A DNA stretch of 64,000 nucleotides. Origin: Wickerhamiella versatilis. Taxonomy: Eukaryota. The position numbers and the translations under genes are program-made. The notes below the pieces were generated by a model. It was given only the letters and a program-made list of their open reading frames with translations. It was not told the origin of the DNA and made no database searches. The stretch lies in contig JAQOWU010000007.1 of assembly GCA_030867685.1 (NCBI GenBank), positions 124,001 to 188,000 on the forward strand, written 5' to 3'. Of the stretch, positions 12,621 to 39,091 are shown piece by piece. Positions within the stretch are counted from its first letter, which is position 1; each line of letters starts with the position of its first letter.

Positions 12621-13987
12621 ATAGATTCTGTCTGTAAGATGAATTTCTTCCAAAATATGCCGATTAATCCAATGGAGTGAAGGATTGAGAGAAGTGTGGT
12701 TCTCTACCCTATTGAAGGACCGCTGATATGTCTTAAATAGCACTCTCGGAATATTACCGAAGTCATTCTCTCCGGGGTTAGGGTATACAGAAGAGGTTTT
12801 TCCACGGTCAACACTTTAAATTTACCGGTTTTATTGTTAATTTATGTTATTTAATATGCCAAAGAAGCAGCTGAGTGCATTAGGCATATGAAAATGCTGC
12901 AAAAGATCTCCGTAAAGGGGTTCAATCAGTTGTCAATGTGGAGATTTATCATCCTTTGTTACTAATTTTTCAATTATTATCGCAGTACTACATATGTTAG
13001 AGATAAATATAAATATTCCATAAGGGCGGCTGAGATATTACCAAATAATTGCAGTGCTGATTTGGAAAATGTCCGCACGAGGTTATGAACGAAGAATCGC
13101 ATCCCTTCATGTCTAACTCTCATTACCCCAAACAGAATCACCTTAATGGTTCGTATGCTATGCTACGCACAGGGCCAGGCTGGATGGCCTCATTGGATCC
13201 CAAGTTTAGGCCGCTGATTCTGAGGATCCATAATGTGAGAGATATCTAACGTACGAACCTTTGTTTCCGAGTGAATCGTTTCTCTATCATTTCATCAGAT
13301 TTGCTTGCTAACGCTTACTTACATTGGCCCCATAAGATCCTCTAGCGTGATACTGAGTCTCTAAAATTCAAAAATCACTCAGCTCGATAATCTTGCATAG
13401 CTGTCGACAGAAAGTGAGTTCCTGCTGCATTTGCGTCCGAGCTGTACAGCGAGGCAGTGCTCTGTGGATGTAGGGCGGCACCCCGGTCTCCGCATGCTGC
13501 ATGTGCATGACATGCCGGTAACGCTATGACGCTCTGCTTGCCCTGTTATATGTCAAGTTGCAAAACTTGATGCAACGTAGCCTATAATATATTATTCTAT
13601 CTCACTCCGACCGAAATTTTATTCTACTAGTTATTGATCTTGTATCGATCTAACTCGACGAGCATCATATGCAGCCGTGGGGAAATCACATGAAAACAAT
13701 CTTCATGATTTCGTAAACATTTTTTACTTGACCGAGATTTATCGCTACGAGACTTTAGCAGTCATTTAATCCATGAACAGAATAGGGTAAATGGTTGGTT
13801 ACATTCTAAATTTCGTGAATAAATAAAGTTTGGCACTACGAATACCTGAAAGGACCTATATATGTATATGCACGATTATGTACGCATCGTACATGAAATT
13901 CCAACAAATATAAGCTTATGCGATCAGATCCAAAAATTCCCATTCTCGACAGCTGTAGGGAGCACATCTGGTAAAGTACGGAAAGGA

Positions 13988-16900
13988 ATGGTTAACGTTT
14001 GCCAAACCCTACTTACAGTCCTCTTCTCTGCAGGAGCTGTAGTGGGAACGGATTCCAGTTCGTTCCAGGATAGGTCGGCTCCCCTGCAACATCGGAGTGC
14101 CAATTCGTGTCCAAGTTCCTCGATATATCCACAGTGTCCACATTACAATTTTGGTTTCCATGCTTCGCAAGCTAACATGCCAAATGCGTCGATTTCAGTT
14201 ACAGATGCTACACTCGTGAGCGGTAGCACGTACAATGTAACTATTTCGTTCCAAGCTGAAGAAAATATGGACATTTCGGCGTTGGATGAACTGAAGATCA
14301 TAGGGCTCCAGTCGTCCTCAGAGACCACAGACGTTTTGTACTCTGTGAATGAAAAGAAGAAGTTCATCGAAAGCCCCAAAAAATGGGATGCCACAGTGCA
14401 GGTTAATGCGAATGTCAAAGGGAACACGGCGTGCATGCCAAGTTTTCAGATTCAATATGACTGGTGCTCACTCAGCGCCAGCTCCGCGGCTAGTGAATGT
14501 AATTCATGGAAATACGCGAAGTCATACGATTATATTACCGGCTGCAATAACGTGGATAACAACGGTAACTCTCAAACTGATGCATCCACCTTTTGCTGGC
14601 CCGTTAATTGCGAAGATGAGGCATCATCGACCACGTCAGTGGCGACTGAATCCTCAAGCACTTCTATATTCGTGCCGGGAACGACTGCCACACGTAGTGC
14701 GCATAACGTTCGAAGTAGCGCATTGACCACGACCACGGCCATTCCAACTACAACTATTTCATTCACTAGTCCGGCAACACATAGTATTCCTTTGCCAACG
14801 GCTTCCTCAAAATGCCAATGTGACAATGAAGATGTTGTGGAGGACATCGTCGATGCCCTTGGTAAGGCTGTGGATGAATCGTTCACCGTTCTCTCTGCGG
14901 GACTGACTCCATGGAACCTTCCTAAAAAAATCTCTTCTATCCAGAGTCTTTATAAGGATGTCCAGAGTCAGGCGAGTGACATAAGCTGTATCAGCTATAG
15001 TTCGCAAGCCCAACTATTCAAGATTCTTGACCAGGCGCTTGAGATAGTCCATGAGCTTCTTGAGGGAGTCGAATCTTTTGGCCTTGTTGAACTTGTTGAA
15101 CAAATAGCACCAGGCCTTCGATTGATCAACGAGGGACTCTCTAGTGTGATAGTGAAGTTTGGCGGAGGACTTTCTCTCAACCCATGTTGTGTAATCTGGG
15201 AAGAGGTTAACTGGTCTTCGGACTATGTTAACCAGGTGAATGGTATTGTTAATAAAGTTAACATCTTGGCACCCATCAAGTTGCCACATATTTCCGGTTT
15301 CGATCTCGGTGTGGGAGTTTCTGACTGCTCGTTGTCCAAATCTAGTGGAGCTACCGTAGTATCGTCGAAGACATTCAGCTCCAAGTTGTCTAGTGCGTCA
15401 TCCAAGGATTCTAGCTCGAAGATTGCTACTGCTAGTGTTACTCCTACAACAACGATCCCCTTCAGTAGTCCCGCCACACATAGTGTTCCGTTGCCAACAG
15501 CTTCTTCAAGTTGTCAATGTGATAATGAGGATGTTGTGGAGGATATTATTGACGCCCTTGGTAAGGCTGTGGATGAATCATTCACCGTTCTCTCTGCAGG
15601 ACTGACTCCATGGAACCTTCCTAAACAAATCTCTTCTATCCAGAGTCTTTATAAGGATGTCCAGAGTCAGGCGAGTGATATAAGCTGTATCAGCTATAGT
15701 TCGCAAGCCCGACTATTCAAGATTCTTGACCAGGCGCTTGAGATGGTCCATGAGCTTCTTGAGGGAGTCGAATCTTTTGGCCTTGTTGAACTTGTTGAAC
15801 AAATAGCACCAGGCCTTCGATTGATCAACGAGGGAATCTCTAGTGTGATAGTGAAGTTTGGCGGAGGACTTTCTCTTAACCCATGTTGTGTAATCTGGGA
15901 AGAGGTCAACTGGTCTGCAGACTATGTTAACCAGGTGAATGGTATTGTTGACAACGTCAACGTCTTGGCACCTATTAAGTTGCCACATATTTCTGGTTTC
16001 GATCTCAGTGTGGGAGCTTCTGACTGCTCGTTATCCAAATCTAGTGGAGCTACTGTCGCATCTTCAAAGACGTCTAGCTCGAAGATTGCTACTGCTACTG
16101 TTACTCCTACAACAACTATCCCAATCTCTAGTCCGTCAACACACAGTATTCCGTTGCCAACGGCTTCCTCAAAATGCCAATGTGACAATGAAGATGTTGT
16201 GGATAACATCATAGATGTTCTTGGTAAGGCTGTGGATGAATCGTTCACCGTTCTATCTGCAGGTCTGACTCCATGGAACCTGCCAAAACAAATCTCTTCT
16301 ATCCAGAGTCTTTATAAGGATGTCCAGAGTCAGGCGAGTGATATAAGCTGTATCAGCTATAGTTCGCAAGCCCAACTATTCAAGATTCTTGACCAGGCGC
16401 TTGAGATAGTCCATGAGCTTCTTGAGGGAGTCGAATCTTTTGGCCTTGTTGAACTTGTTGAGCAAATAGCACCAGGCCTTCGATTGATTAACGAGGGAAT
16501 CTCTAGTGTGATAGTGAAGTTTGGCGGAGGACTTTCTCTCAACCCATGTTGTGTAATCTGGGAAGAGGTCAACTGGTCTGCAGACTATGTTAACCAGGTC
16601 AACGAGATTATTGACAACGTCAACGTCTTGGCACCTATCAAGTTGCCACATATTTCTGGTTTTGATCTCAGTGTGGGAGTTTCTGACTGCTCGTTGTCGA
16701 AATCTAATGGAGCTACTGTGGCATCTTCAAAGACATCTAGCTCGAAGATTGCTACGGCTAGTGTTACTCCTACAACAACTATCCCAATCTCTAGTCCGGC
16801 CACACACAGTATTCCGTTGCCAACAGCCTCGTCAAGTTGTCAATGTGACAATGAAGATGTTGTGGAAGACATGATAAATGCTCTTGGTAAGGCTGTGGAT

Positions 16901-19900
16901 GAATCGTTCACGGTTCTTTCAACGGGTCTGACACCTTGGAATGTTTTCAAGCAAGTTTCGTCTATCCAAAGCCTTTATAAGGACGTTCAGGATCAGGCAA
17001 GTGATATTAGCTGTATCAGCTATAGTTCGCAAGCCCAACTATTCAAGATTCTTGACCAGGCGCTTGAGATAGTCCATGAGCTTCTTGAGGGAGTCGAATC
17101 TTTCGGTCTTGTTGAACTTGTTGAGCAGGTAGCACCAGGCCTTCGATTGATCAACGAGGGAATCTCTAGTGTGATAGTGAAGTTTGGCGGAGGACTTTCT
17201 CTCAATCCGTGTTGTGTAATCTGGGAGGAGGTCAACTGGTCTGCGGACTATGTTAACCAGGTGAATGGTATTGTTGACAACATCAACGTTTTGGCACCTA
17301 TCAAGTTGCCACATATTTCCGGTTTTGATCTCAGTGTGGGAGTTTCTGACTGCTCGTTATCCAAATCTAGTGGAGCTACTGTCGCATCTTCAAAGACGTC
17401 TAGCTCGAAGATTGCTACTGCTACTGTTACTCCTACAACAGCTATCCCAATCTCTAGTCCGTCAACACATAGTATTCCGTTGCCAACTGCTTCTTCTAGT
17501 TGTCAATGTGACAATGAAGATGTTGTTCAGGAGATTATTGACGCCCTTGGTAAGGCTGTGGATGAATCGTTCACCGTTCTATCTGCAGGACTGACTCCAT
17601 GGAACCTGCCAAAACAAATCTCTTCTATCCAGAGTCTTTATAAGGATGTCCAGAGTCAGGCGAGTGATATAAGCTGTATCAGCTATAGTTCGCAAGCCCA
17701 ACTATTCAAGATTCTTGACCAGGCGCTTGAGATAGTCCATGAGCTTCTTGAGGGAGTCGAATCTTTCGGTCTTGTTGAACTTGTTGAGCAGGTAGCACCA
17801 GGCCTTCGATTGATCAACGAGGGAATCTCTAGTGTGATAGTGAAGTTTGGTGGAGGCCTTTCTCTTAACCCATGCTGTGTAATCTGGGAAGAGGTCAACT
17901 GGTCTGCGGACTATGTTAACCAGGTGAATGGTATTGTTGACAACGTCAACGTCTTGGCACCTATCAAGTTGCCACATATTTCTGGTTTCGATCTCAGTGT
18001 GGGAGTTTCTGACTGCTCGTTGTCGAAATCTAGTGGAGCTACCGTCGCATCGTCCAAGACGTCTAGCTCGAAGATTGCTACGGCTAGTGTTACTCCTACA
18101 ACAACTATCCCAATCTCTAGTCCGGCCACACACAGTGTTCCGTTGCCAACAGCCTCGTCAAGTTGTCAATGTGACAATGAAGATGTTGTGGAAGACATGA
18201 TAAGTGCTCTTGGTAAGGCTGTGGATGAATCTTTCACTGTTCTCTCTGCAGGTCTGACTCCATGGAACCTGCCAAAACAAATCTCTTCTATCCAGAGTCT
18301 TTATAAGGATGTCCAGAGTCAGGCGAGTGATATAAGCTGTATCAGCTATAGTTCGCAAGCCCAACTATTCAAGATTCTTGACCAGGCGCTTGAGATAGTC
18401 CATGAGCTTCTTGAGGGAGTCGAATCTTTCGGTCTTGTTGAACTTGTTGAGCAGGTAGCACCAGGCCTTCGATTGATCAACGAGGGAATCTCTAGTGTGA
18501 TAGTGAAGTTTGGTGGAGGACTTTCTCTCAACCCATGCTGTGTAATCTGGGAAGAGGTCAACTGGTCTTCGGACTATGTTAACCAGGTGAATGGTATTGT
18601 TGACAACATCAACGTTTTGGCACCTATTAACTTGCCACATATTTCCGGTTTCGATCTCAGTGTGGGAGTTTCTGACTGCTCGTTGTCCAAATCTAGTTTG
18701 GCTAGCACTGCGACGTCCAGGACATTTATCTCCAAGGCGACTACAGCGTCATCTAAGAAGTCTACTTCGAAGATTGCTACTGCTAGTGTTACGCCTACAA
18801 CAACGATACCCTTCAGTAGTCCCGCCACACATAGTATTCCTTTGCCAACAGCTTCTTCAAGTTGTCAATGTGACAATGAGGATGTTGTTCAGGATATTAT
18901 TGACGCCCTTGGTAAGGCCGTGGATGAATCATTCACTGTTCTCTCTGCAGGTCTGACTCCATGGAACCTGCCAAAACAAGTCTCTTCTATCCAGAGTCTA
19001 TACAAGGATGTCCAGAGTCAGGCGGGCGATATAAGCTGTATCAGCTATAGTTCGCAAGCCAAACTCTTCAAGATCCTTGACAAGGCGCTCGAGATAAACC
19101 ATGAGCTCCTGGAGGGAATTGGGTCTCTTGGTATTGTTGAACTTGTTGAGCAGGTAGCACCAGGCCTTCGCTTGATCAACGAGGGAATTTCTAGTGTGAT
19201 GGTGAAGTTTGGTGGAGGACTTTCTCTCAACCCATGCTGTGTAATCTGGGAAGAGGTCAACTGGTCTGCGGACTATGTTAACCAGGTGAACGATATTATT
19301 GACAATCTCAATGTGCTAGCGCCTATTAAGTTGCCTCATATTTCTGGTTTCGATCTCAGTGTGGGAGTGTCTGACTGTTCCTCGTCGAGATCTAGTGGAG
19401 CTATGATATCGACGTCCAAGACATCTAGCTCGAAATTGGCTTCAGTGTCGTCCAGGGCTTCTCGTAGCACGTTTTCCACGGCGTCATCTAAGAAGTCCAC
19501 TTCGAAAATTGGTACTGCTTCTGTCACTCCGACAACAACTATCCCAATCTCTAGTCCGGCAACACATAGTATTCCGTTGCCAACTGCTTCTTCTAGTTGT
19601 CAATGTGACAATGAAGATGTTGTTCAGGAGATTATTGACGCCCTTGGTAAGGCCGTGGATGAATCATTCACTGTTCTCTCTGCAGGTCTGACTCCATGGA
19701 ACCTGCCAAAACAAATCTCATCTATTCAGGGTCTATACAAGGATGTCCAGAGCCAGGCGAGCGATATAAGCTGTATTAGCTATAGTTCGCAAGCCAAACT
19801 CTTCAAGATTCTTGACCAGGCACTCGAGATAAACCATGAGCTCCTGGAGGGAATTGGGTCTCTTGGTATTGTTGAACTTGTTGAGCAGGTAGCACCAGGC

Positions 19901-21622
19901 CTTCGATTGATCAACGAGGGAATCTCTAGTGTGATAGTGAAGTTTGGTGGAGGACTTTCTCTTAACCCATGCTGTGTAATCTGGGAAGAGGTCAACTGGT
20001 CTGCGGACTATGTTAACCAGGTAAACGATATTATTGACAAGATTAACGTCTTGGCACCTATTAAGTTGCCGCATATTTCTGGTTTTGTTCTCAGTGTAGG
20101 TGTGTCTGACTGTTCGAGTTCTTCATCGACTAGGACTGTCTCAAGTATTGGCACGTATTCTATCTCTGGAAGTGCTAGGTCGAGTTCCAGGAAACCGTCT
20201 ACATCTCTGACTTCTCGCCAATCTATACTCCCCTCTAGTGAGACCAGCATACGTTCCTCGGTGACATCTAGAAGCACGAGTACAGCTAGTATTTCGCGAA
20301 GTACGACTGCTCGGCAAAGTATATCATCTGTCTCGACACCAACTGGGACCTCTTCGAGTCAAAGCTCAGGGGGAGTATTGCGTTCTAGCTCGCAAGGCAA
20401 ATCATCATCAATACATAGCAAGTCATTCTCAAGTAGTGGCAAGTCACATGTTAGCTCGAGTACCATTTCTTCGGCGCCCTCCTTCAGTACTTCAAGCGCA
20501 CCGAAGTCAAGTCTGTCTTCAAGTGGTTCTAGCAAGTCACATGTTAGCTCGAGCACCATTTCTTCGGCGCCCTCCTTTAGTACTTCAAGCGCACCGAAGT
20601 CAAGTCTGTCTTCAAGTGGTTCTAGCAAGTCACATGTTAGCTCGAGCACCATTTCTTCGGTGCCCTCCTTTAGTACTTCGAGCGCACCAAAGCCAAGTCT
20701 GTCTTCACGGGTTTCTAGCTCATCAGGCGTGCACTGGAGTAATTCTAGCTCAATTGCGACAACTTCCACCTCTCATGTGCCATCTCCAGCTTCTAGTGGT
20801 TGCTCCTGCACCCTTGTTGGGACCCAAACTCCCGATGATGATTGCAGCTCTGATATTTCTCAGTCAGTGTTTGACGATTTGACTAATGCAAACGAGGAGA
20901 TTCAGCATCTGATTGCGTCCGGGTTGAGTCCTGACGACTTTACCAAGGTGTTATCCAGTATTTCTCATGTTATCACAGAGAGCGAGTCCTCTCTCAGCTC
21001 TGGCGGTTGTATTAACTCTGGTGATGGCCGTAGTATGATCTCACATTTGGAAACCCTCATTGGGTCTCTTGCCGAGGCCACTGCCCAAGAAAGTTCGGAA
21101 GACCTATTTGGCCAATGTCCTAGTTGCTTGAGCAGTTTTGGAAATGTTAGCAAGTCGATATCTGAACTCCTTAGGGAACTCGATGGCAAGCTGAAATCTA
21201 ATCCGTGCTCTGTTGATTGCGGTGGAGTATCTACCCTGAATAATTACGTCAGTACTTTGAATTCTTTCATTAGTTCATTGAATTCGAAGTATGGTACGAA
21301 CATCGCGAAGATTTCAAGTATCTCGGCTTGTGGTTCTGGTCAAAGATCGTGTTCAAAGAGTACTTGGACAACCACGATTCCTGTTCCTTGCACACAAACC
21401 TCTCTTCTCACTGGAACGGTCTATACCACTGGTAAACCAGAGGCAGCTGTCAGGCTGATGCAGGGGTCCAATGCGTTACGTGCTCGGGCCGTTCCTACAG
21501 CTGCAATTTCTAAGAGTGAATCTGAGAATTCAGGTGCTGTAGCTCAATCAGACTCTGGTGGCATCGCTAAGCCTATGGGGGTGTTCGTGATTACTGGCGT
21601 TCTTGTTGCGGCCCTTGTTTAA
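13988..21622 (+). CDS. Giant Flo11-type GPI-anchored adhesin with tandem globular repeat domains
   Basis: ATG at 13988 precedes a signal peptide (the ORF is open from 13862). Flo11A-like domain at 14135-14611 (LKIIG, MPSFQIQYDW, TGCNN.DNNGNSQTD..FCW..NC), Ser/Thr stalk, and hydrophobic C-terminal GPI signal. Confidence 0.88.
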   Translation: MVNVCQTLLTVLFSAGAVVGTDSSSFQDRSAPLQHRSANSCPSSSIYPQCPHYNFGFHASQANMPNASISVTDATLVSGSTYNVTISFQAEENMDISALDELKIIGLQSSSETTDVLYSVNEKKKFIESPKKWDATVQVNANVKGNTACMPSFQIQYDWCSLSASSAASECNSWKYAKSYDYITGCNNVDNNGNSQTDASTFCWPVNCEDEASSTTSVATESSSTSIFVPGTTATRSAHNVRSSALTTTTAIPTTTISFTSPATHSIPLPTASSKCQCDNEDVVEDIVDALGKAVDESFTVLSAGLTPWNLPKKISSIQSLYKDVQSQASDISCISYSSQAQLFKILDQALEIVHELLEGVESFGLVELVEQIAPGLRLINEGLSSVIVKFGGGLSLNPCCVIWEEVNWSSDYVNQVNGIVNKVNILAPIKLPHISGFDLGVGVSDCSLSKSSGATVVSSKTFSSKLSSASSKDSSSKIATASVTPTTTIPFSSPATHSVPLPTASSSCQCDNEDVVEDIIDALGKAVDESFTVLSAGLTPWNLPKQISSIQSLYKDVQSQASDISCISYSSQARLFKILDQALEMVHELLEGVESFGLVELVEQIAPGLRLINEGISSVIVKFGGGLSLNPCCVIWEEVNWSADYVNQVNGIVDNVNVLAPIKLPHISGFDLSVGASDCSLSKSSGATVASSKTSSSKIATATVTPTTTIPISSPSTHSIPLPTASSKCQCDNEDVVDNIIDVLGKAVDESFTVLSAGLTPWNLPKQISSIQSLYKDVQSQASDISCISYSSQAQLFKILDQALEIVHELLEGVESFGLVELVEQIAPGLRLINEGISSVIVKFGGGLSLNPCCVIWEEVNWSADYVNQVNEIIDNVNVLAPIKLPHISGFDLSVGVSDCSLSKSNGATVASSKTSSSKIATASVTPTTTIPISSPATHSIPLPTASSSCQCDNEDVVEDMINALGKAVDESFTVLSTGLTPWNVFKQVSSIQSLYKDVQDQASDISCISYSSQAQLFKILDQALEIVHELLEGVESFGLVELVEQVAPGLRLINEGISSVIVKFGGGLSLNPCCVIWEEVNWSADYVNQVNGIVDNINVLAPIKLPHISGFDLSVGVSDCSLSKSSGATVASSKTSSSKIATATVTPTTAIPISSPSTHSIPLPTASSSCQCDNEDVVQEIIDALGKAVDESFTVLSAGLTPWNLPKQISSIQSLYKDVQSQASDISCISYSSQAQLFKILDQALEIVHELLEGVESFGLVELVEQVAPGLRLINEGISSVIVKFGGGLSLNPCCVIWEEVNWSADYVNQVNGIVDNVNVLAPIKLPHISGFDLSVGVSDCSLSKSSGATVASSKTSSSKIATASVTPTTTIPISSPATHSVPLPTASSSCQCDNEDVVEDMISALGKAVDESFTVLSAGLTPWNLPKQISSIQSLYKDVQSQASDISCISYSSQAQLFKILDQALEIVHELLEGVESFGLVELVEQVAPGLRLINEGISSVIVKFGGGLSLNPCCVIWEEVNWSSDYVNQVNGIVDNINVLAPINLPHISGFDLSVGVSDCSLSKSSLASTATSRTFISKATTASSKKSTSKIATASVTPTTTIPFSSPATHSIPLPTASSSCQCDNEDVVQDIIDALGKAVDESFTVLSAGLTPWNLPKQVSSIQSLYKDVQSQAGDISCISYSSQAKLFKILDKALEINHELLEGIGSLGIVELVEQVAPGLRLINEGISSVMVKFGGGLSLNPCCVIWEEVNWSADYVNQVNDIIDNLNVLAPIKLPHISGFDLSVGVSDCSSSRSSGAMISTSKTSSSKLASVSSRASRSTFSTASSKKSTSKIGTASVTPTTTIPISSPATHSIPLPTASSSCQCDNEDVVQEIIDALGKAVDESFTVLSAGLTPWNLPKQISSIQGLYKDVQSQASDISCISYSSQAKLFKILDQALEINHELLEGIGSLGIVELVEQVAPGLRLINEGISSVIVKFGGGLSLNPCCVIWEEVNWSADYVNQVNDIIDKINVLAPIKLPHISGFVLSVGVSDCSSSSSTRTVSSIGTYSISGSARSSSRKPSTSLTSRQSILPSSETSIRSSVTSRSTSTASISRSTTARQSISSVSTPTGTSSSQSSGGVLRSSSQGKSSSIHSKSFSSSGKSHVSSSTISSAPSFSTSSAPKSSLSSSGSSKSHVSSSTISSAPSFSTSSAPKSSLSSSGSSKSHVSSSTISSVPSFSTSSAPKPSLSSRVSSSSGVHWSNSSSIATTSTSHVPSPASSGCSCTLVGTQTPDDDCSSDISQSVFDDLTNANEEIQHLIASGLSPDDFTKVLSSISHVITESESSLSSGGCINSGDGRSMISHLETLIGSLAEATAQESSEDLFGQCPSCLSSFGNVSKSISELLRELDGKLKSNPCSVDCGGVSTLNNYVSTLNSFISSLNSKYGTNIAKISSISACGSGQRSCSKSTWTTTIPVPCTQTSLLTGTVYTTGKPEAAVRLMQGSNALRARAVPTAAISKSESENSGAVAQSDSGGIAKPMGVFVITGVLVAALV
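14720..20115 (+). repeat. Eight near-identical in-frame tandem repeats (periods 699, 663, 663, 663, 663, 699, 735 bp)
   Basis: CQCDNEDVV recurs near 14813, 15512, 16175, 16838, 17501, 18164, 18863 and 19598. The antisense ORFs in the track repeat with the same periods. Confidence 0.95.
20441..20710 (+). repeat. About three copies of a 93-bp (31-aa) Ser-rich repeat
   Basis: aagtcacatgttagctcgag at 20441, 20534 and 20627, encoding KSHVSSSTISSAPSFSTSSAPKSSLSSSGSS. Confidence 0.92.
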
Positions 21623-26354: not shown

Positions 26355-26670
26355 ACTATAAAACAGTTCCGTACTTTGTAGATATATACATATATATTCA
26401 ATCACTCAATATAAACCTATAATACCGGCAACACATATTGTATCGCATATTACATCTCAGGATGCAGCAGTTTGGTTTTGGATCAAAATTCACGAAAAAG
26501 CTTGTAAGGAACCTATCGCTTAATATTAACTAGAAATATCGATCGCCGCTGAAATGCATGGAATAAACGCTTACATTCTGGGCAGATCGTACAAAGGATG
26601 TCATCGGAGACAAACTTAGATAGAGCAAAAAAAATATGACTGGTTGTTGTTGGCTACCATAAAAAAGGAT

Positions 26671-27809: not shown

Positions 27810-29504
27810 ATGTGTATCTCTTGCCAGAAACTGGTGACCAACGCATGGCGCCGGAGCTGGAATGGGGAGGAGGGTAAACTGTGTTTTAACTGTAGCAAGC
27901 GATACGAAGGCCATAAAGTTTACTGTAAGAATTGCAACTTCGTACCTTATGCTGCCGATGTTATGAAAGGTTTGGCTTGTACAAAGTGTACACCGAAGAC
28001 CACGTGCGTTTCCTGCGAGGTCACAGAATCGCCACAGTGGCTCCCCAGCTGGGATCCTGACCAGAAGCTATGCCAAGCTTGTGGCACACGATATCAAAAA
28101 CATAAGAAATACTGTAGCGAGTGCCGGTTTGTCCCATACTACAGACAGACGCAATGCAAATGTGCGAATCCAGCAGCATGCATTTCCTGCATGAGGTCTT
28201 GTTCAGCAGACTGGGAAAGCTGGAGCAGCACTGAGGGAAAGCTATGCGGCATATGTGCTGCACGGTTTGGTCTCCACAAATCGCACTGCACGGGATGTGG
28301 TTTCATCCCGCCAACAGGTAAAAAAGTAATTACCAAAAAAGAATATAGGAAGCAAAACGGGGAGATCGTATCGTGTCCTTCCTGCTTCTCCACTACTTCC
28401 CCTTGTGTTTCCTGCAACACAATCCGGTCCATCAGCTGGCACAAGAGCTCGATAGGTAGGGGTAGAGTGTGTAATTGGTGTCACCTACGGCACGAGGAAC
28501 ATGGGAGCTTCTGTCAAGATTGTGGGTACATCCCACTAGCCGAAGAAGTAACTAATGATTGTCCACAATATGAGTGCACTGGAGCTATACAGAAGAGCCC
28601 ACCCAGCCAGCCCACAAAAAGATGCATGTCCTGCCACCAAGTACCCTTGGGATGGGTGGCTAGTTGGGATAACGCGTTAGGTCAATTGTGTGCACAGTGC
28701 GGCGATCGTTATAAGCACGTTAAAATGTATTGCGATGTGCCATATTGCCACCTCGTTCCGTTTCAGCACCAGATTGAAAAGGCAGGAAAAAAGGGGTTAT
28801 TTACTTGTCTCCAATGCGGACACGGAATGCGAAAAAATGATGCTCCGACCCCAGAAAGAAGAGATGATGATAAAGGTGTGGCCCAGGACCCGCCAAGCAT
28901 TGAAAATGCAACCCTCACCCTCTCGGATGGTGAACTTCAACCAGGCCCTAGACGCTCAAGAGGTAGAAAAGCTGGACCTTCGGGACCCTGTATCGCATGT
29001 GGCACTACAGAGACCGTTAAATGGCGCCCAAGCTGGGATAGTGAACAAGGCGCGCTTTGCAATGCCTGCGGCAAACGTCACATGAGAAATTCTGCGCACT
29101 GCACATTATGTGGCTTCATACCGAACAAGAAAGAGTGGGAAAAAATGCAAATTATGGTCAAAGAAGGAGAGCAAGGGGACCAACTCTTTCTGTGCCCTAC
29201 CTGTAGTCGTCAAACCGGTGGCGATCAATATAGCGTTGTTTGGACACCGCCTCCTGATAAAGGTATCCCGCGCATCTGCTTTTCATGTGGAGAAAACAAC
29301 ACCCTCACATGGCACCAAAGCTGGGAACCGGGTCAGATGCTATGCAATTCCTGTGGCATTCGTTGGAAGAACATGGGCATGCACTGCGACTGTGGTTACG
29401 TTCCATTTAAGTCGCAGTTGAGTAAAGTTTCATCTAAGGATGGTAGTCAAAACATCCAATGTAAAAAATGCGAAAAAATGATGACCGTCCATGTGCCGAA
29501 TTAG
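27810..29504 (+). CDS. Multi-zinc-finger protein with seven tandem Ash1-like GATA modules
   Basis: Seven repeats of CxSC-x7-W-xx-SW-x4-6-LCxxCxxR followed by CxxC-xxP...CxxC. The frame is open back to 27636 and encodes a further partial module, so the 5' end is uncertain. Confidence 0.8.
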   Translation: MCISCQKLVTNAWRRSWNGEEGKLCFNCSKRYEGHKVYCKNCNFVPYAADVMKGLACTKCTPKTTCVSCEVTESPQWLPSWDPDQKLCQACGTRYQKHKKYCSECRFVPYYRQTQCKCANPAACISCMRSCSADWESWSSTEGKLCGICAARFGLHKSHCTGCGFIPPTGKKVITKKEYRKQNGEIVSCPSCFSTTSPCVSCNTIRSISWHKSSIGRGRVCNWCHLRHEEHGSFCQDCGYIPLAEEVTNDCPQYECTGAIQKSPPSQPTKRCMSCHQVPLGWVASWDNALGQLCAQCGDRYKHVKMYCDVPYCHLVPFQHQIEKAGKKGLFTCLQCGHGMRKNDAPTPERRDDDKGVAQDPPSIENATLTLSDGELQPGPRRSRGRKAGPSGPCIACGTTETVKWRPSWDSEQGALCNACGKRHMRNSAHCTLCGFIPNKKEWEKMQIMVKEGEQGDQLFLCPTCSRQTGGDQYSVVWTPPPDKGIPRICFSCGENNTLTWHQSWEPGQMLCNSCGIRWKNMGMHCDCGYVPFKSQLSKVSSKDGSQNIQCKKCEKMMTVHVPN

Positions 29505-29636
29505 AAGCCCAACCCAGCTACTCATATGAAGAGGCTTTAAGCATGTCTATATCATCCATGAGTTATATAATCATATCTATGTATCTGACAAATTTAAATA
29601 AGTACCTAGGGCAATATCAAAGCCTTGCCTGATGAT

Positions 29637-31199
29637 CTAGTACGCATATCGGAAATTTTTATTCTCGCCATCCGTTAAGTCCTCCATAGACGACTGCATC
29701 GCATGCGTTTCCGGCGCGCCGTACTTCACGTCGCGTCGTCGATTGACTATTACGTAATAACAAAGCAGGGCAATTTGAAACACAAACGATATCACACTCA
29801 ACGCAGCAATTGCTTCCTTTGCAGACGGCCATCCTGCTTCTTTCTCGGAGTCTGTAAAGAGCTGAGGGCCTGAGAGATTGGAAGCGGAATAAAGACAGAG
29901 TACAGCCGAGCTGACGGTGATCTTTTTAGTGTGCCCTGTGATATTGGAGGTGACCATTGAGAGCATACCTCCATAGGACAACTGGGCGACCCAATTCCAC
30001 ATCCAAAGTCCGACGAGTTGCGACGCGTCGTTGGGACCCCATGATATGAGACAGCAGCACATTACGTTCAAGGATCCACCGAAGAGCATGTATGCGAACC
30101 GGTGGTGAGAGAAAAGGCCGGCGAGAGACACTGCACCGACGCCCCAGCAGCCAAGAAGCTGGAAGGCGCCGCCCGGCATTGTCATGAGAAGCGATTTCGG
30201 CTTTGACGAGACTACTTGGTTGATGAGGCTATTCTGGAAGGTTGTCATGGCCCCCATAATAATGCAATTGGCAATGATGTTCCCGAGGATGAGTGCGGTA
30301 TGCACAATTTCCGACGTGAAGGGTTCCAGGACCTGGTACCACTTGATCTTGGTATCGCCGAAGCCCTGCTGGTTGTCGCGGAGGCGGACGAGAAGGGCAC
30401 GCTTTTCGGGCTCGGTGAGGAACCAGGCTTCATCCGGGGTATTAGGTACGATGAAGAAGTAGAGAATGCCGGTGAGAACTGTCAGCAGGCCGAAGATGAT
30501 GTGGGCGATTCTCCAGCTGGCTATTGGGTAGTTGTGCGTGATGAGGCCGTAACCGACGGCGTTCACTAAAAAGATTGTGATGCCATTGGCGCCGGTCCAG
30601 ACCATTCCACCAGCTCCAAAATGCTGATGCTTCGGGAAGAACTGCGATACAGTGACCTGGAAGGACGAGATCATGATGGACTCACCGGCACCAAGGAGCA
30701 CGCGGCACACGACGTAGCCGGCATAGCTCTGGCTGGCAGATGAGCATGCAATCACGATGCCCCATAGGAGTACCACGATACCCGTGTAGCGCGTACCACA
30801 CTTCTTAACCACCAGGAATGAGAGGGGAACCTCGGCGACAAGGTAACCGAGGTAGTATGCGCTACTGGTCCACGAGAACATCTCGTTTTTGGTCATGTCG
30901 AGACCCCCGAGCCATCCCTCGGACTTGTCCTTGATGCCAAGGATTGCAGAAGTGGACAGGAGATACTTATCGGTGAACATTATCATGTATGTCCAGCCGA
31001 GTACCGCATTCAGCCCCCATGTCTTGGCTATCAATGACTTCATATCCTTCTTCGACGTACCAAGGTCCTCAAGGGCTTCTGGGGCGACCTCAGCATGGTC
31101 GAAGCTGGATTTGCTGTCGCCGGCGTACTCCACATACTCGACCTCTGGCTTGGGTTTCTCATCGTTGTTGATCTGAACTTCTCGTGAGCGGAACCACAT
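29637..31199 (-). CDS. MFS allantoate permease (DAL5) family transporter
   Basis: FSWTSSAYYLGYL, RVLLGAGES, SWRIAHIIFG, PDEAWFLT, NITGHTKK and DLTDGENKNFRYAY motifs. ATG at 31199; the track start is GTG. Confidence 0.9.
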   Translation of the reverse strand: MWFRSREVQINNDEKPKPEVEYVEYAGDSKSSFDHAEVAPEALEDLGTSKKDMKSLIAKTWGLNAVLGWTYMIMFTDKYLLSTSAILGIKDKSEGWLGGLDMTKNEMFSWTSSAYYLGYLVAEVPLSFLVVKKCGTRYTGIVVLLWGIVIACSSASQSYAGYVVCRVLLGAGESIMISSFQVTVSQFFPKHQHFGAGGMVWTGANGITIFLVNAVGYGLITHNYPIASWRIAHIIFGLLTVLTGILYFFIVPNTPDEAWFLTEPEKRALLVRLRDNQQGFGDTKIKWYQVLEPFTSEIVHTALILGNIIANCIIMGAMTTFQNSLINQVVSSKPKSLLMTMPGGAFQLLGCWGVGAVSLAGLFSHHRFAYMLFGGSLNVMCCCLISWGPNDASQLVGLWMWNWVAQLSYGGMLSMVTSNITGHTKKITVSSAVLCLYSASNLSGPQLFTDSEKEAGWPSAKEAIAALSVISFVFQIALLCYYVIVNRRRDVKYGAPETHAMQSSMEDLTDGENKNFRYAY

Positions 31200-32951
31200 C
31201 TTTAGGTTCGAATTCTGCGGTGAACGAGACCACTCTGCGCACGTCCGATATAAAAAATAGACAGACTTCTCGTACCCTAACTTTTTCTCCGCACTCACCC
31301 TCAGCGCGAATGATGTAATGCCTCATCTGGTGAGTTATCAGACCATGCTGATCTAGCGCACACTGCCGTGATCTGCGTTACAGGGCGAAAATCACTTGAC
31401 CAGATCAGGCAGGCAGTGAATTTCTGCGGAATTCTTGGCGTTTTTTTGGGGTAATTCTTTTTCTAACCCGGAAACGTATTCGCTGCAAGGTCGCAATTTA
31501 GTCATAACTGCATACCAGGGTGCGGGTTGTCCTTGCACTTGTTGTGTGGAGGGGAGACACTGTGTGAGAATTTTGAGATCAGCAAGTGGGCTGTCTTGTA
31601 TGGGGAGGGATGGTTCTATACGAATGACGCGAAAGAGCTCGAAAATGCAGCCAAGGTAACTCAGATAATCATGTCACAAATATGATTCATTGGATGGTGG
31701 GCTATCAAGTCAAACAGCAATCGAGATGCCATTCAAATACGAAAAGTTTCCAAGTTTATGCAGCGCTTGGCTGCCGAAGTGTATAGAAATAATTGCTGTC
31801 CTAGAAGTGCTAAAGTTGCATTTTGTATTCTTCAATCGGTTATTTACGGGAACATTGCTTTATTTTGCTATTGATACTAACCGTGCTGGCCTTTCAAAAA
31901 CCTGGACTAACTAGGTCGCCGTGGCCATCTCGCATTGTCTCACAAAATCTGGTTCATGCTGCAGAAATCGTGACAGGGGTGGCAGCATGTGATAAACCAT
32001 GGGCTCGCGTCCCTGCTAGATATTGTTAGTTTAACTACAATTTCTGATGCCGGAGCAGGCTTGGAAGCTCATGCCCATGTTACAGATATATATTCCGTAG
32101 GTTACTTTACGTTCCAACACCCCTATGCGGGCCTCCTACCTAATTTGTCTACCTGCAGCTCAGCGCTGTCCTCGAGATTTCTACTAGTGATCCTACCACG
32201 CGTTAAACTCTTAAGGCCATTGTCTAACCAGCCCAACCAGTCTTAGAAATAGCGTCGTTTAAACCTGGCAACCTGTCGCTGCGCCTCGCTCAACCATTAG
32301 TCAATTATTGATATGTACTTCCATCACGTACACCATTTGATTATAAAGTGTTATGCGGAATGCAGTCAATTTACATTTCGATAATCAAGTGTTCAACTAG
32401 CCGAATTGCTAAACGTTGAAGTTATCCTGCTTCGTTTGACAAGGGAGTGAACTCGTTAGTTTATTTCTTCTACCAAAAAGGGAAGTCTCCTAATGCAATT
32501 AGTCATAACTTTTTGACGGTGCACCGAACGTCTGTCTGCTCGTTGGCGACGCGAATGCATCCTCTCGTCGCTAAATGTTAGCTAGCAGATAGTCATGCTT
32601 TTATTCCTCGGGCCATTATCTGCTTTCTGGACGCTGGAAGATGAAAGCGGTGTTTCTGCCGGATCTCGTGTACGTCACTTCATAACCCTAGTTCAACAAG
32701 GGTGGGGAACATACCGACCGGAACTTCTAGTTCAAGGTATTTCGAGCTCAAGTTCGTAGACTACGTACTTTGGCAAACTATAATGAGAACTTGTCCTGAC
32801 GCTAGTCTTCCACCCGTCTCATAGTGATAATCCTTTGGTGTGTAAAGGACCGTTGTAAACACGACACACACACGACCATTAGTCAATGATCGTCGCGCTA
32901 GCAGATGATATTTAAATAGAGAAATAAGGCTACTAAATTCATCTGCATATA

Positions 32952-33590
32952 ATGCTGACCGGAAAAATAGTTCCTGCTGTCCTCGCCTTCGCGGCTTGTG
33001 CTTCTTTCCCTGTGGACTACAATAAACGCGGTTTAGCTGATTGCCTCAATCCACAACATGCCATCCAACTGGCCCAGACTCTCAAAGGCGACGTGCCACA
33101 GATAGCAGGCAATGTCACTGATCTTTCCTCTAAGCTGGGTTCGTTGACGACGAAGCTCGAAGGTGTCACCTCGGGTGATGTTTCTCAGCTCCTCTCTCCA
33201 TCTGTGCTGAATTCTGTGGAAGGAGTTGCCAAGGATATTACGGGTTTGGGGGAGATCGTGGTTGATCTCAATGACAATATTGAGTGGTCCTGCATTGGAG
33301 GAGATTTGTTGCAGAACATTGTGGATCAATTCGATTCTGTTGCCAAAGAACTCAACAGTTATGCCGAGAACGTCGAAAGCATTGTCAATGATTTGTCCGA
33401 CTCTAATCCAGTACAGGGTGCATTCGATCTTCTCAAGGATCTTTATCAACCCAACCAGGCGCTTCTCGGTATCCTCAAGAAAGCCCAAGGTGCGGTTCCA
33501 GGCATTGGCGGCGTCCTTGCTAATGTTACGGGTAGGGTTGAGGATTGCAGTACGAAGATTCACGATCTATTGGAAAAAATACCTCTCTAA
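32952..33590 (+). CDS. Small secreted helical protein, family B, copy 1
   Basis: Signal peptide, propeptide ending in KR (Kex2-type site), amphipathic helices and 3 Cys in the mature part. Confidence 0.85.
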   Translation: MLTGKIVPAVLAFAACASFPVDYNKRGLADCLNPQHAIQLAQTLKGDVPQIAGNVTDLSSKLGSLTTKLEGVTSGDVSQLLSPSVLNSVEGVAKDITGLGEIVVDLNDNIEWSCIGGDLLQNIVDQFDSVAKELNSYAENVESIVNDLSDSNPVQGAFDLLKDLYQPNQALLGILKKAQGAVPGIGGVLANVTGRVEDCSTKIHDLLEKIPL

Positions 33591-35071
33591 GCCTAGGAAT
33601 GGCGACGAATGTTCTCGCATCCAACGAGGCCTTTAAAAATGAAATAGGCTTCCCTTGATAGTAATGCTCTTGGTAATATTAAATAGTATGAGAACGGATA
33701 GTGAGTTAAGACGCAAGTAATGAGAAGTCATACATTGGTTTTGAAACCAAAGATCATTCCCGGTTATAAGCTCAAAGATGCATCTTAAGCATCGCCGATG
33801 TCCTTTGATTTGTAATTTCCCTGGCATCCCGATCCTCCCCGCAATTCGGCGAGTCCCCGAGCATTATCCTTGCCCTATCTGAGAATTAGGATTGTCTGAG
33901 TTCCATCGATTCAAAACACGCCACGAAAGATCGCTACACTCCATCTCGATGTCAAAAATATAATTAATCGGATGGTGGTAAAGTTTGGAAACACTTTTTC
34001 AAGTCAAAGAAAAATCGAGATACTATTCAAATGCAAGCAAATTCCAAGGCCATCTGGCATTGTAACAAGACAGCACGTGTTAATTCATTTGCTGGCGTCC
34101 CTAATATTATATTGTTAGTTGAACTACAATCTCTGATGCTGGAGCAGGCATAGAAGTTCATGCTCATGCTACCGTAGGTTCTATGCTACAACACCCCGAT
34201 CCGGGCCATTCGTTTACCTGCAGCTCAGCCCTGACCTCGCCATCCCTACTAGTCTTAACATGCCCCAAGATCTTAACTTCATTAATCGTAATTTCATTGT
34301 ATAACCAGCCCAACCAGTCTCACAAATGTCACCGATTAAAACTAGCAACCTGTCGCTATACCCTGGTCCATCATTACTCAGCACGTATTCCCGATAATTA
34401 ATGTGTACGTCCATGACGTACACGTGGATCATAAAAGTGTCATGCAGTAAATTCACGTTTTGAGAATCGAGTGTTCAACTAGCCGAATAAGGAGGATTGC
34501 TATACGTCGGAGTGATCCTCCCTCGTTTGCCCGATCTCACATGATGGTGTGAACTCATTAGTCTATTTCTTGTACCGGGAAGGAAGATCACCTTATGCAA
34601 TTAATCATAATATCTTGTGCATCGGACTACTGTCTACTCGATGGCGACGCGAATGTGCCCTCTCGTCGCTAATTGTTGGTTGGCAGAAATTCACGCTTCT
34701 CTTCCTCGGGCCCTTATCTGCTTTTTTGACCTTTGCAGATAAAAGCGGTATTTCTGCCGGATGTAGCGTAGCGTACATCACTTCATAACCCTAACATTAT
34801 GCTGATTAACAAGGGTAGGGAATTAGCGTAGAACATATCGGAAATTCTAGTTTAAAGCATTCCAAGCTCGAGTTAGTAGACTACGTACGTAGGCAAATTA
34901 TAGTGAGAATATTCCCGGACGCTTCTCCTGTCTAATGCCTCTACAAATCTCGTAGCGCAAGTCCTTTAGTATATAAAGGGCCATTATAAACACGACCATT
35001 AGTCACTGATCGTCGCGCTGGTAAAAGCTATTTAAAGAGAGAAATAAGGCTACTAACTTCATCGCTCTATA

Positions 35072-35719
35072 ATGCTCACTGGAAAAGTAGTTCCTGCTGT
35101 CCTCGCCCTCGCGGCTTATGCTCAATGTGCCTCTCTCCCTGTTGACTACAATAAACGTGGTTTGGCTGATTGCCTCAATCCAGGACATGCCATTCAACTG
35201 GCCAAGACTCTCGCAAGTGACGTGCCAAAGATAACTGGTGATGTCACTGATCTTACCTCTAAGCTGGGTTCTTTGACGGCGCAGCTCGGTGCTGCCACCT
35301 CGGGTGATGTGGCTCAGCTCCTCTCTCCAACTGTGTTGAATTCTGTGAATGGAGTTACCCAGGATATCACGAAATTGGGAGACGTCGTGATTGATCTTAA
35401 TGACAATATTGAATGGTCCTGCATTGGAGGAGATTTGTTGCAGAACATTGTGGATCAATTCGATTCTGTTGCCAAGGAACTCGATAGTTATGTCGAGAAC
35501 GTCGATAGCATTGTTAATGATTTGACCAATCTCAACCCAGTACAGGGTGCATTCGATCTTCTCAAGGATCTTTATCAACCCAACCAGGCGCTCCTTGGTA
35601 TCCTTAAGAAGGCCGAGGGTGTGATTCCCGGTATTGGCGGCACCCTTGCTAATGTTACGACTAGGGTTGAGGATTGCAGTACGAAGATTCACGATCTGTT
35701 GGAAAAAATACCTTTCTAA
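35072..35719 (+). CDS. Small secreted helical protein, family B, copy 2
   Basis: Close paralog of 32952-33590 with 3 extra codons in the signal region; both ORFs are intact. Confidence 0.85.
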   Translation: MLTGKVVPAVLALAAYAQCASLPVDYNKRGLADCLNPGHAIQLAKTLASDVPKITGDVTDLTSKLGSLTAQLGAATSGDVAQLLSPTVLNSVNGVTQDITKLGDVVIDLNDNIEWSCIGGDLLQNIVDQFDSVAKELDSYVENVDSIVNDLTNLNPVQGAFDLLKDLYQPNQALLGILKKAEGVIPGIGGTLANVTTRVEDCSTKIHDLLEKIPF

Positions 35720-37120
35720 GTCTAGTACTGGCTACGAATTTTCTCGCATGAAGCGAGGCTTTTAGAAAAAATAGTCTCTCCTTAATAGTAATGCTCTCGA
35801 TATAATTAAATGGTATGGAAATGGATAGCGAGTTAAGACGCGAAGGTACTAGAAACATGCGTTGGTTTTGAAATTGTTGCTGGAGCAAAAGATCATTTTC
35901 GGTTACAAGCTCAAAGATGCGTTTCAAGCATTCCGAGGTCCTTTGATTTCTAATTTGGTTGTAAATAGGATGCCCTCAAATTAGCGAATTTCCCGCCCTT
36001 ACCGTATATAATCCGAGGATTACTAGGTACAGGGTAGCGATACTCCGTGGCGTATTTTAGATTTTGTAGAGCCTGTTTAAGCACTATGGGGCGTAGTAAG
36101 TCACAGCAAGGTGCGCTTAGAATGTCTCGGTGCATTCAACTGAGTCATTTGTGAAAATACCGCTTTACTACATGATCCTGGTATTATTGTACCCGTCAAG
36201 TTGGAAGCGTGCTATCTCTAGGGCTAGCTAGTAGTTTCCTACATCCCATGCGGGGTTGTGCAAACTGTTTATTAGTGGATAATAATCTATACCCAGTCTA
36301 CTCCCGGGTTGAGTATGTTTAAGATTTGTTAGTATACCTAAGACGAAAATACCGACTTGAAACCTCTCTTCACTGCAAATGTACATGGAATTCTACTAGG
36401 TGGAAATTCCCCGGGATACCTTGGTGACCAAGGTTCAGCATATCATCGACTCCGTCACTTAGTAAATGCATGGATAAGTATTATCCTGCGCAATTACGAC
36501 GGCGACTATATGAATAGTTAATGCAAAGAAGAAATAATTAAACGGATTAGTTGAAGCAGTACTGGGAAGTCACCAAAAAAATTAGTGCTTGCAAATCGGC
36601 AGAATGTTTTTCAGAGGCAGATATCTGCACACAATGTATCGAGGATAGCCCTCCATCGAGGTGTATCCGCTAATCTAGACCAGCTAGTCTCAGGTAGCGA
36701 GATGGGTACGCTAAGCATCAATACCAATATCGGCATGTCTTTTAGAAATAGCGTCACAGGTATAAAAAGGAGAATTTAGAGCGTTTCACGCTATGACACC
36801 CGCTTCACGTGACAGCCAGACCTCAAAAAAGAAATTATATACCAAATTCTATCGGCTAGCATTTGACTAAAATAGTACTACAGACCTCACACTCACTAGG
36901 GAGTACACCACAGAATTATTGACTAGCAGGCAGCCGGCTTACAGGAGAATCCCTCTCGCATCCTAGCACCTTATCCCAGCATATCCGAAGTATCCATGCT
37001 ATTAGCATTTCACCCCAAAAGTACTTGAGAATTATGCAGTCGAGAGATTGACAAGATAGATTAGATTCAATCAGCTGCGCCGCGTTTATGTAATAAAGCT
37101 CAAAAAAGATTTCCCTAGTG

Positions 37121-39091
37121 ATGAACTCAGATATCACACAAAAGGAAGAACTCGAGCCCCACAAGCTCGTAGCAAAAGTTGAGCAAGATTCCGTGAGCGA
37201 AAAAAATGACTACGAAGTAGATTCAGCCGGTATCGATGAAAAGGTGCTTTCCCACTCGATTGACGAGAAAAACGGCTCTGATGGAGAAGATCACCGTGGT
37301 GTGGAACGCATTATGGCTGTTAACAAGGCTCTGGTTACCTCATACACGTTTACGCTATTCAATCGAGAATATTCTGTGCTCAAATGTCTGCTTCTGTTTT
37401 TCCTATTTCTGCACGGATATGGGTCTGGTTTAGATGGAGGTCTGAATAAAACACTTCAACAGGCAATTATATCCACTTTAGGCCATAACGGAGATACCTC
37501 AGCCGTTAATACAGTCCAGCATATGATCGCATCTGCAATTTATATGCCGTATGCCCGACTATCGGATAGGTTTGGTCGGGTAGAGTCATGGATAGCAGCA
37601 CTAATCCCATTTACAGTAGGGCGTATACTAGTTGCAGCTGCTCCAAATTTTTCGACTCTTTTTGCCGGTGTGGCTATTGGGGAGATCGGGTGGGCAGGCT
37701 TCAGCTTTCTTTCGAAGGCAATACTCTCAGATGTGACAGTGCTTAAGGACCATACTTTCGCAATGAATATATATGATCTCCCGGAGATTATAAACTTTTG
37801 GGCTGCTGGATACATATCTCAATCACTGATTGGCAACAAAGCAGCTGACTACCAGGATCATGAAGCAGGTGCCCGGTGGGGCATTGGAATGTTTGCCATA
37901 ATAACTCCATTCACCGCCCTTTTGATTGTATCTGTTTACTTTTATGCCCAGTTAATTGTATCTCGTCGTCACGAGTTGCCAAAGATTCGGATTGTTGCGC
38001 CTGGTAAATCCATCAGAGGTACGGTTTATGGATTTATCCAGGACCTGGACCTAGTAGGCGTGTTATTTTTTGCTGCAGGAATGGTTTTATTACTACTACC
38101 TTTAAGTCTTGCAGGAGGAAGTGATTCAAAGTGGAGCAGTGGGCAGAATATCGCAATGATATGCGTCGGTGGTGGGCTGATTCCTGTGTGGGTTCTATGG
38201 GAGGTGTACGTCGCCAAGAAACCATTGATACCCAGGCAGTATTTCGGGAGTACTTTCATCGCAGCCTGTGCCTTAGAGTTCCTCACTCGCTTTTCGTCTC
38301 AAGTCGTGGCAGCGCAGGCTAAAACTAATCTTCTGATAGGCTACGACCAGTCCACTCGGCAAGCACAGTGGATTGATTCTATATCAACCTTTGAGGGTGC
38401 AATTATAAATGCGATTGTGGGGTTAGTACTTCACCACTGGCCTCGTCCCAAATTCTTTTTGCTGACGGGTGGTGCTGTGTACATCCTTGGTGTCGGCCTT
38501 CTGGTCAAGTATAACAATGCATATTTCAGTGACCAAGGCATTCAAGGCTATATTGCCGCTGAGGTGGTGATGGGAATTGGAAGCACCTTGATGCGATATC
38601 CAACATGGACTTTAGTGCAGGCCTCTCTACCTCATGAAGAAATGGCTGCAGCAATTGCTTGCATGTTGTCCTGCTATCAGGTTGGGCATGCCGTAGGAAG
38701 CTGTGTGGGGTCTGCCATATGGGAGAATCTGGTCTCTAGGAATCTTCAGAAATACGTTGGCTCCCTTCCTTCCCAGAGAGTGAACGGAAAAGAAGTTTCA
38801 GCGAAAGCACTTGCAACAATGATATTCAATAATCCTAACAAATACACTGCCATTTTTCCTATGGGTTCGAAGGTACGTGATGCTATCTTAAAATCGTATC
38901 AAAATCCTGAGTATATTTCAGCGATCATTTCAGTCTGCTTTTCGGCTCTTCTTGTTATCTTCACCTTCATTCCTTTCCCTTACGATATCCACACAAATGG
39001 AGAAACTATTTCGGAAGAAAAGCGCAGGGAGGAGGAAGGTAAGTTTGGTCGTGGCAAAAAATCCTGGATTCTCAGATATGTCGGTTTCTAA
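37121..39091 (+). CDS. Siderophore-iron transporter (ARN/SIT family, 14-TM MFS)
   Basis: GVERIMAV, YARLSDRFGRVE, RWGIGMFAII and DLVGVLFFAAG...LLPLSLAGG...W motifs. Confidence 0.85.
   Translation: MNSDITQKEELEPHKLVAKVEQDSVSEKNDYEVDSAGIDEKVLSHSIDEKNGSDGEDHRGVERIMAVNKALVTSYTFTLFNREYSVLKCLLLFFLFLHGYGSGLDGGLNKTLQQAIISTLGHNGDTSAVNTVQHMIASAIYMPYARLSDRFGRVESWIAALIPFTVGRILVAAAPNFSTLFAGVAIGEIGWAGFSFLSKAILSDVTVLKDHTFAMNIYDLPEIINFWAAGYISQSLIGNKAADYQDHEAGARWGIGMFAIITPFTALLIVSVYFYAQLIVSRRHELPKIRIVAPGKSIRGTVYGFIQDLDLVGVLFFAAGMVLLLLPLSLAGGSDSKWSSGQNIAMICVGGGLIPVWVLWEVYVAKKPLIPRQYFGSTFIAACALEFLTRFSSQVVAAQAKTNLLIGYDQSTRQAQWIDSISTFEGAIINAIVGLVLHHWPRPKFFLLTGGAVYILGVGLLVKYNNAYFSDQGIQGYIAAEVVMGIGSTLMRYPTWTLVQASLPHEEMAAAIACMLSCYQVGHAVGSCVGSAIWENLVSRNLQKYVGSLPSQRVNGKEVSAKALATMIFNNPNKYTAIFPMGSKVRDAILKSYQNPEYISAIISVCFSALLVIFTFIPFPYDIHTNGETISEEKRREEEGKFGRGKKSWILRYVGF

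Follow-up and report, generated by a model that had tools for sequence, protein, structure and literature searches.

Domains with a common predicted HsbA/Mp1p-type fold in a Flo11-type adhesin and a tandem pair of secreted proteins of Wickerhamiella versatilis

Domain X, which is repeated nine times in a Flo11-type adhesin, and family Y, to which a tandem pair of secreted proteins belongs, have the same predicted five-helix fold and helix order, as judged via shared reference structures. Both also have a conserved Cys ahead of helix 1 and another in the helix 2–3 loop. We favour, with moderate confidence, the explanation that X and Y are separately diverged, Cys-bearing subfamilies of the fungal HsbA/Mp1p five-helix bundle. 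The shared predicted fold, helix-for-helix order, Cys positions and gene architectures were computed, and the rest of this explanation we infer. The first-pass annotation had proposed that one uncharacterised domain is used both tethered (i.e. in the adhesin) and free (i.e. in the secreted pair). The predicted fold and the two Cys positions are indeed common to both, but the adhesin repeat and the protein encoded at 32952 (the 32952 protein) do not form one sequence family, as no sequence or profile match is significant above controls. Nor is the domain uncharacterised, because its fold is that of Mp1p, Afmp4p and HsbA.

The analysed window is a 64-kb stretch (C7:124001–188000) of a 9.9-Mb, 8-contig genome, and its genes are of fungal type and without introns as read. 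As read from the translations, X and Y both occur in secreted fungal proteins, which are free or, in the case of X, also S/T-stalked with an apparent GPI signal. The features of the adhesin gene and of the tandem pair are listed in Table 1.

Table 1. Positions of the adhesin and family Y features in the window
Feature	Position	Strand	Basis or remark
Adhesin open reading frame	13862..21622	+	2586 aa counted from first ATG
Flo11 domain, adhesin aa 91–241	14132..14584	+	PF10182, E 1e-45
Eight domain X copies, 172 aa each	14813..20113	+	Predicted five-helix bundle, Mp1p/HsbA type
Ninth domain X copy, divergent	20801..21352	+	~22% identity to repeat 1
Tandem duplication unit 1	32325..33830	+	Gene and its upstream and 3' flanks align with about 34420–35960
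Secreted protein, 212 aa, family Y	32952..33590	+	Translation and predicted structure
Lys-Arg pair, aa 25–26 of 32952 protein	33024..33029	+	Candidate Kex2 site, presumed cleavage
Cys31 (mature 5), ahead of helix 1	33042..33044	+	Invariant, 20/20 aligned family Y rows
Cys114 (mature 88), helix 2–3 loop	33291..33293	+	Invariant, 20/20 family Y rows
Tandem duplication unit 2	34420..35960	+	Aligns with unit 1
Tandem paralogue, 215 aa	35072..35719	+	82% identity to 32952 over mature part
Lys-Arg pair, aa 28–29 of 35072 paralogue	35153..35158	+	Candidate Kex2 site

The adhesin has an N-terminal Flo11 domain (155.9 bits against a PF10182 cut-off of 25) and, by eye, a hydrophobic C-terminus of the GPI-signal type. 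Judging by the translation, Met43 (13988) is the likelier start, with a hydrophobic leader after it. The eight X repeats begin at 14813, 15512, 16175, 16838, 17501, 18164, 18863 and 19598, contain six Cys each and are separated by S/T-rich linkers. The ninth copy aligns with repeat 1 at a score of 119, which none of 500 shuffles matched (reversed sequence, 45). The same C-terminal X variant ends this adhesin and two other proteins (C8:41–44 kb and C1:91–95 kb), a sign of module shuffling among adhesins.

Both Y genes lie on the plus strand where the first-pass annotation had placed them, and each encodes a hydrophobic N-terminus and a KR pair. The 32952 protein consists of a signal peptide (read from the translation), a short propeptide ending in KR and a 186-aa predicted five-helix bundle of the Mp1p/HsbA type, and has neither an S/T stalk nor an anchor. 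The KR pair is kept in most, but not all, relatives, and in a 20-row family Y alignment the only invariant residues are Cys31 and Cys114. These two, before helix 1 and in the helix 2–3 loop, would lie at the same end of an up-down bundle and are likely disulfide partners. The duplication that produced the pair (dN/dS 0.45) takes in DNA both upstream and downstream of the gene. Close relatives occur in other data sets and contigs of one other sample extend over both genes, which are hence not an assembly artefact. Four contig sets of that sample were compared with window 20750–37200: one covers it evenly and places both Y genes in a second, slightly different strain; the other three, from the same single study, cover mostly genes, among them the two Y genes and the 3' part of the adhesin gene. 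The latter were not counted as evidence of expression or co-expression, as they come from one study and their kind is not on record. Two relatives of the pair from other data sets (P0004 and P0005) are mosaics of both paralogues around aa 135–155, a hint that the tandem copies have undergone gene conversion or unequal crossing-over.

We compared X and Y directly at the sequence and profile levels. The strings quoted in the first-pass annotation do occur in the two proteins, but the three colinear matches built from them are not above chance as sequence. The local alignment of the repeat with the 32952 protein scores 45, a value reached by 27 of 500 shuffles and exceeded by the reversed sequence (48). 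The first matching block scores 8 (4/18 identities); the best one, the SCI motif plus the third block, scores 27 over 31 aa, but 73 of 300 shuffles do at least as well, as do 58 of 138 windows taken from unrelated helical proteins, and the reversed protein gives 36. In profile-profile alignment, X (18 rows) and Y (11 rows, later 20) did not beat reversed controls (26.5 versus 31.4, and 28.6 versus 33.8 with reversed Y). X against the Y core gave 22.4 (reversed, 21.8), and among profile subsets one pair was slightly over its control (32.6 versus 30.0) and others were under. Within-family positive controls passed, at 97.9% for two X subgroups and 89% for 32952-like against other Y proteins. Thus, the HHalign-type cross-match expected between the repeat and the mature proteins is not found by a clear margin above reversed controls.

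The first-pass annotation would have abandoned its reading if the profiles did not cross-hit and the predicted folds differed; the profiles indeed fail to cross-hit, but the predicted fold is common to X and Y. Both match the Mp1p-LBD/Afmp4p five-helix bundle over the whole domain in predicted structures, at 7–13% identity throughout. Known counterparts are Mp1p and MpLp1–13 of Talaromyces marneffei and Afmp4p of Aspergillus fumigatus (PDB 5e7x, 5ecf, 5fb7, 5csd, 6j6f, 5j5k and 5j5l). Going by PDB entry titles, solved relatives of the fold have palmitic or arachidonic acid bound. Sequence-based resources return little: neither X nor Y has a curated Pfam match, PDB sequence searches with either gave coiled-coil noise or nothing and no Mp1p/Afmp4p-family chain, and the ESM Atlas returned nothing for X and, for Y, two unnamed Ascomycota clusters at 0.76, under the usable level. 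Nevertheless, a near-identical relative of the 32952 protein bears the precomputed label PF28544, so that a Pfam entry for Y may already exist. No Rfam match was found anywhere in the window.

The HsbA proteins of the same genome provide a bridge between X and Y. Six proteins match PF12296 (HsbA), four of them above the cut-off of 33.5 bits; four of the six have an S/T-rich hydrophobic tail and two have none. X and Y are not among them, as the best Y relative reaches 19.2 bits and a free X copy 13.2, and for this reason they are not filed as HsbA members. A profile of the six HsbA matches nonetheless aligns with X over 146 columns (score 31.3, reversed 19.4, low probability of 41%) and with the Y core over 132 columns (score 30.5, reversed 21.2, low probability of 34%). 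Despite these low probabilities, both alignments outscore 30/30 column shuffles, and both exceed the X–Y core link. Through the HsbA profile, residues 60–88 of the repeat fall on mature residues 89–117 of the 32952 protein, an offset of +29 that equals that of the ungapped 28-aa run in the first-pass annotation. For helix 1, by contrast, the bridge gives an offset of +13 rather than the proposed +2, and structural matches also give +13 (repeat 7 and mature 20 both fall on Afmp4p residue 25). Bridge and structure together indicate that the earlier alignment had the true helix-3 register and loop Cys, and that its first block was off by three turns. Y is the taller bundle, with helices 1 and 2 longer than those of X by 9–15 residues. 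One canonical HsbA protein of the genome (L077:1429–2010, plus strand; C7:1,277 kb; 47.6 bits) is Cys-rich with a C-terminal Cys run, from which it follows that cysteines were gained more than once in the HsbA fold in this genome.

These results bear on whether X and Y are related at all. They could be two unrelated amphipathic five-helix bundles that merely resemble each other and Mp1p, as the lack of a significant X–Y match and the low identity to all structural matches would allow; unrelated bundles also come within about 1–2 Z units in a wide structure search. However, the X model and the Y model each, independently, put one and the same small group of secreted fungal proteins at the top with full-domain cover, each family aligns end to end with HsbA over reversed controls, and the sequence bridge agrees with the structure on the helix-1 offset. 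We regard such convergence as improbable, and X and Y probably descend from the HsbA/Mp1p superfamily.

A closer relationship must also be weighed, namely that X and Y are sisters in a single disulfide-stapled clade within this superfamily, nearer to each other than to canonical HsbA, in which case the single-family view would be true at a deeper level. In both, one Cys precedes helix 1 and another stands immediately ahead of helix 3; the residues that follow are in one register by the HsbA bridge (+29 over 29 residues), and direct hhalign of X and Y lands on the same SCI region each time. Such a clade is also favoured by four of the six in-genome HsbA domains having no Cys and by one free X copy lacking both the N-terminal and the loop Cys. 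The scores point the other way: X–Y values are below those of X–HsbA and Y–HsbA and equal to reversed controls, and the X profile gives the 32952 protein only 8.5 bits, a score that many unrelated coiled-coil proteins surpass. The first and the loop Cys are 56 aa apart in X and 83 in Y, the longer helices 1 and 2 of Y put its first Cys out of register, X has four further Cys that are absent from Y, and bundle-end staples arise easily in secreted proteins. We consider a common stapled clade rather unlikely and retain separate divergence as the preferred reading.

We then surveyed free and anchored forms in the whole genome. A search with X found at least 31 domains in at least 13 genes. Eight are of the anchored type, with long S/T-rich regions, hydrophobic tails and 9, 4, 3, 3, 2, 2, 2 and 1 copies, and one of these has a PA14/GLEYA head. 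This wall protein (1156 aa; L027:2632–6102, minus strand; C8:41–44 kb) contains two divergent X domains. Five genes encode free, single-domain X proteins that have a leader but lack a tail. Three of them form a tandem at C7:2,426–2,432 kb (45–47% identical to the repeat, with the same stop position and dN/dS of 0.26, 0.27 and 0.51); the fourth is at C8:4,593 kb (38%), and the fifth, which is distant, at C8:144 kb. None of the five has KR ahead of the domain. Anchored plus free use in one genome therefore holds for X, with its eight stalked and five free genes, but not for the 32952 pair, which belongs to Y and is seen only free; the free counterparts of the repeat are distant genes without KR, and not the Kex2-type pair as had been supposed.

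Family Y comprises at least 10 genes at four loci, all encoding proteins of 212–256 aa with no stalk. Two distant Y subfamilies stand head-to-head at 3/3 loci (L028, L054 and L055; C8:103.9–105.8 kb, C8:4,471–4,473 kb and C7:2,523–2,525 kb) and are under purifying selection (dN/dS 0.24 and 0.26); they may share a promoter or form a heterodimer. Four different Y genes follow one another at C8:4,470–4,474 kb. Beyond this genome, the Y profile gave nine clear matches among 1.84 billion representatives (210–241 aa, none named). Tethered Y was sought among 141 lower HMMER matches and rejected: in the 20 scanned, those with a family were generic coiled coils (i.e. HAMP kinases, chemoreceptors, tape-measure, Mce and other coiled-coil proteins), three had no family, and the median Cys content over all 141 is 0.08%. 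Among the top 8000 candidates scored with the X profile, there was one long protein and no short ones.

Every X or Y locus found is at most about 255 kb away from a contig end. The 11.3 kb between the adhesin end and 32952, which the first-pass annotation had given as about 11 kb, is sufficiently explained by this clustering, and we rejected physical linkage as the sign of a system. Two of the four Y loci have class 3 lipase genes no more than 5 kb away, a weak functional hint that is confounded by the same chromosome-end clustering.

If X and Y are indeed separate HsbA/Mp1p-type subfamilies, Y proteins would enter the secretory path, shed their propeptide at KR and close one disulfide linking the N-terminus with the helix 2–3 loop. 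They could then serve as soluble binders of fatty acids, other hydrophobic molecules or surfaces, as do Afmp4p, Yarrowia eFbp and HsbA. Domain X, which probably has the N-terminus/loop disulfide plus two more bonds, would have this same role, whether as a free protein or as one to nine arrayed copies on wall proteins rich in S/T, and the array behind the Flo11 head of the 13862 adhesin might form a multivalent hydrophobic-contact or lipid-holding stalk. X and Y need not cooperate, as their nearness would reflect common residence in chromosome-end gene clusters. By analogy, lipid or hydrophobic-surface binding is for each family about equally likely to hold or to fail, because relatives of the fold include a laccase subunit and g7941.

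The fold may instead bind proteins, with the free forms partnering secreted enzymes or acting on competing microbes and the repeats being rigid spacers for the Flo11 head. Recruitment of cutinase by HsbA and the laccase subunit among the relatives would fit, but most solved relatives contain fatty acids according to their PDB titles, lipase genes cluster at chromosome ends like all X/Y genes, and a mere spacer leaves unexplained why stand-alone secreted X is under purifying selection. We view this alternative as possible but somewhat unlikely. More doubtful still is a two-part system, in which X and Y would be a disulfide-stapled HsbA/Mp1p branch evolved by this yeast lineage, free bundles would collect the fatty acids or waxes that secreted lipases release, and up to nine arrayed bundles on Flo11- and PA14-headed adhesins would hold lipid or a hydrophobic surface at the wall, joining cell–cell adhesion to multivalent lipid capture.

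Several other genes in and beyond the window deserve mention. A third secreted family without a Pfam match is present at 25797–26354 (plus strand) and 26671–27189 (minus strand), with 28 matches in the genome and nine nearly identical members scattered over four contigs; no profile link to X or Y was found. Its polyproteins have five and two near-identical 148-aa units with KR between them (L074:1827–4187, minus strand; L075:2309–3265, plus strand) and look, from their translations, like Kex2-processed repeat proteins. At window 25500–26322, contigs of the other sample have loose ends at 25500 and a joint that skips 821 bases (weak, with 20 letters on its short side), which suggests that the 25797 gene is absent at that place in the other strain. 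A UDP-glycosyltransferase gene (56388–57659) stands next to an ABC transporter gene (57951–61955), both on the minus strand, with a fatty-acid-hydroxylase-like gene (by-eye reading) at 62474–63499, a group that we take to recall the glycolipid biosynthesis clusters of Starmerella yeasts. The window also encodes a 564-aa protein with many Cys-rich units (27810–29504, plus strand), of which four stretches match the GATA zinc finger and no other domain; a 409-aa protein rich in Ala, Gly and Val that has a leader, a long hydrophobic part and no Pfam match at E 1 (10007–11236, minus strand); and a capsule-synthesis-type glycosyltransferase of PF05704 (7063–8295, minus strand), a family that is commoner in filamentous fungi and bacteria.

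Yeast adhesin stalks are usually regarded as spacers. If the preferred explanation is true, the nine-bundle Flo11 adhesin and twelve more X genes, anchored or free, would mean a direct grip on oily or waxy surfaces or the holding of lipid at the wall, and the HsbA/Mp1p fold would be extended by two families missed by Pfam. The X and Y domains are small and stable-looking and hence directly testable. Beyond the region 32952–35719, the nine-bundle adhesin and the true free X counterparts are the most interesting part.

The tethered-plus-free design, which the first-pass annotation had thought undescribed, is not new in general and is already published for the Mp1p fold in the available text of PMC4999278. 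According to that text, Mp1p of Talaromyces marneffei combines two such domains with an S/T-rich region and a GPI anchor, and each of its 13 homologues has a single domain; among the 14 family members, three have a GPI anchor and nine a signal peptide without an anchor (PMC4999278, Table 2). Like Mp1p, MpLp and Afmp4p, X and Y have a five-helix bundle predicted over the whole domain and the same anchored/free genomic pattern. Unlike them, X and Y have conserved cysteines, at the low identities given above; X occurs in up to nine copies (two in Mp1p) and is fused to Flo11 or PA14/GLEYA heads; and Y has longer helices 1–2 and a KR propeptide.

HsbA-family members (PF12296) are five-helix proteins secreted by fungi, and HsbA adsorbs to hydrophobic polyester and recruits cutinase (PMC13537970, available text). 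Both X and Y show a weak full-length profile alignment to HsbA, but remain far under the Pfam cut-off. The eFbp1–4 (UP1–4) proteins of Yarrowia lipolytica form a secreted family that is restricted to its lineage and predicted to have the same fold; deletion and overexpression strains have altered fatty-acid handling, and extracellular fatty-acid uptake by yeasts is described as still open (PMC9526294, available text). The motifs quoted there for eFbp are not evident in X or Y by eye, and the same text mentions no anchored or tandem form, whereas X has both. Members of the five-helix family of g7941 fall into many unrelated sequence clusters (bioRxiv 2023.01.06.522876, available text). In the literature available, in which subscription journals are thinly covered and which included part of PMC7156268, we found neither these Cys-bearing families nor an HsbA-fold array in a Flo11/PA14 adhesin. 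The Cys-bearing X and Y subfamilies and their place in the adhesin thus appear to be undescribed.

The stalk of Flo11 consists of short S/T/P-rich repeats. The 13862 adhesin resembles Flo11-type adhesins in its Flo11 head, long S/T-rich region and hydrophobic C-terminus, but differs from them in a stalk that carries nine folded helical domains of 172 aa.
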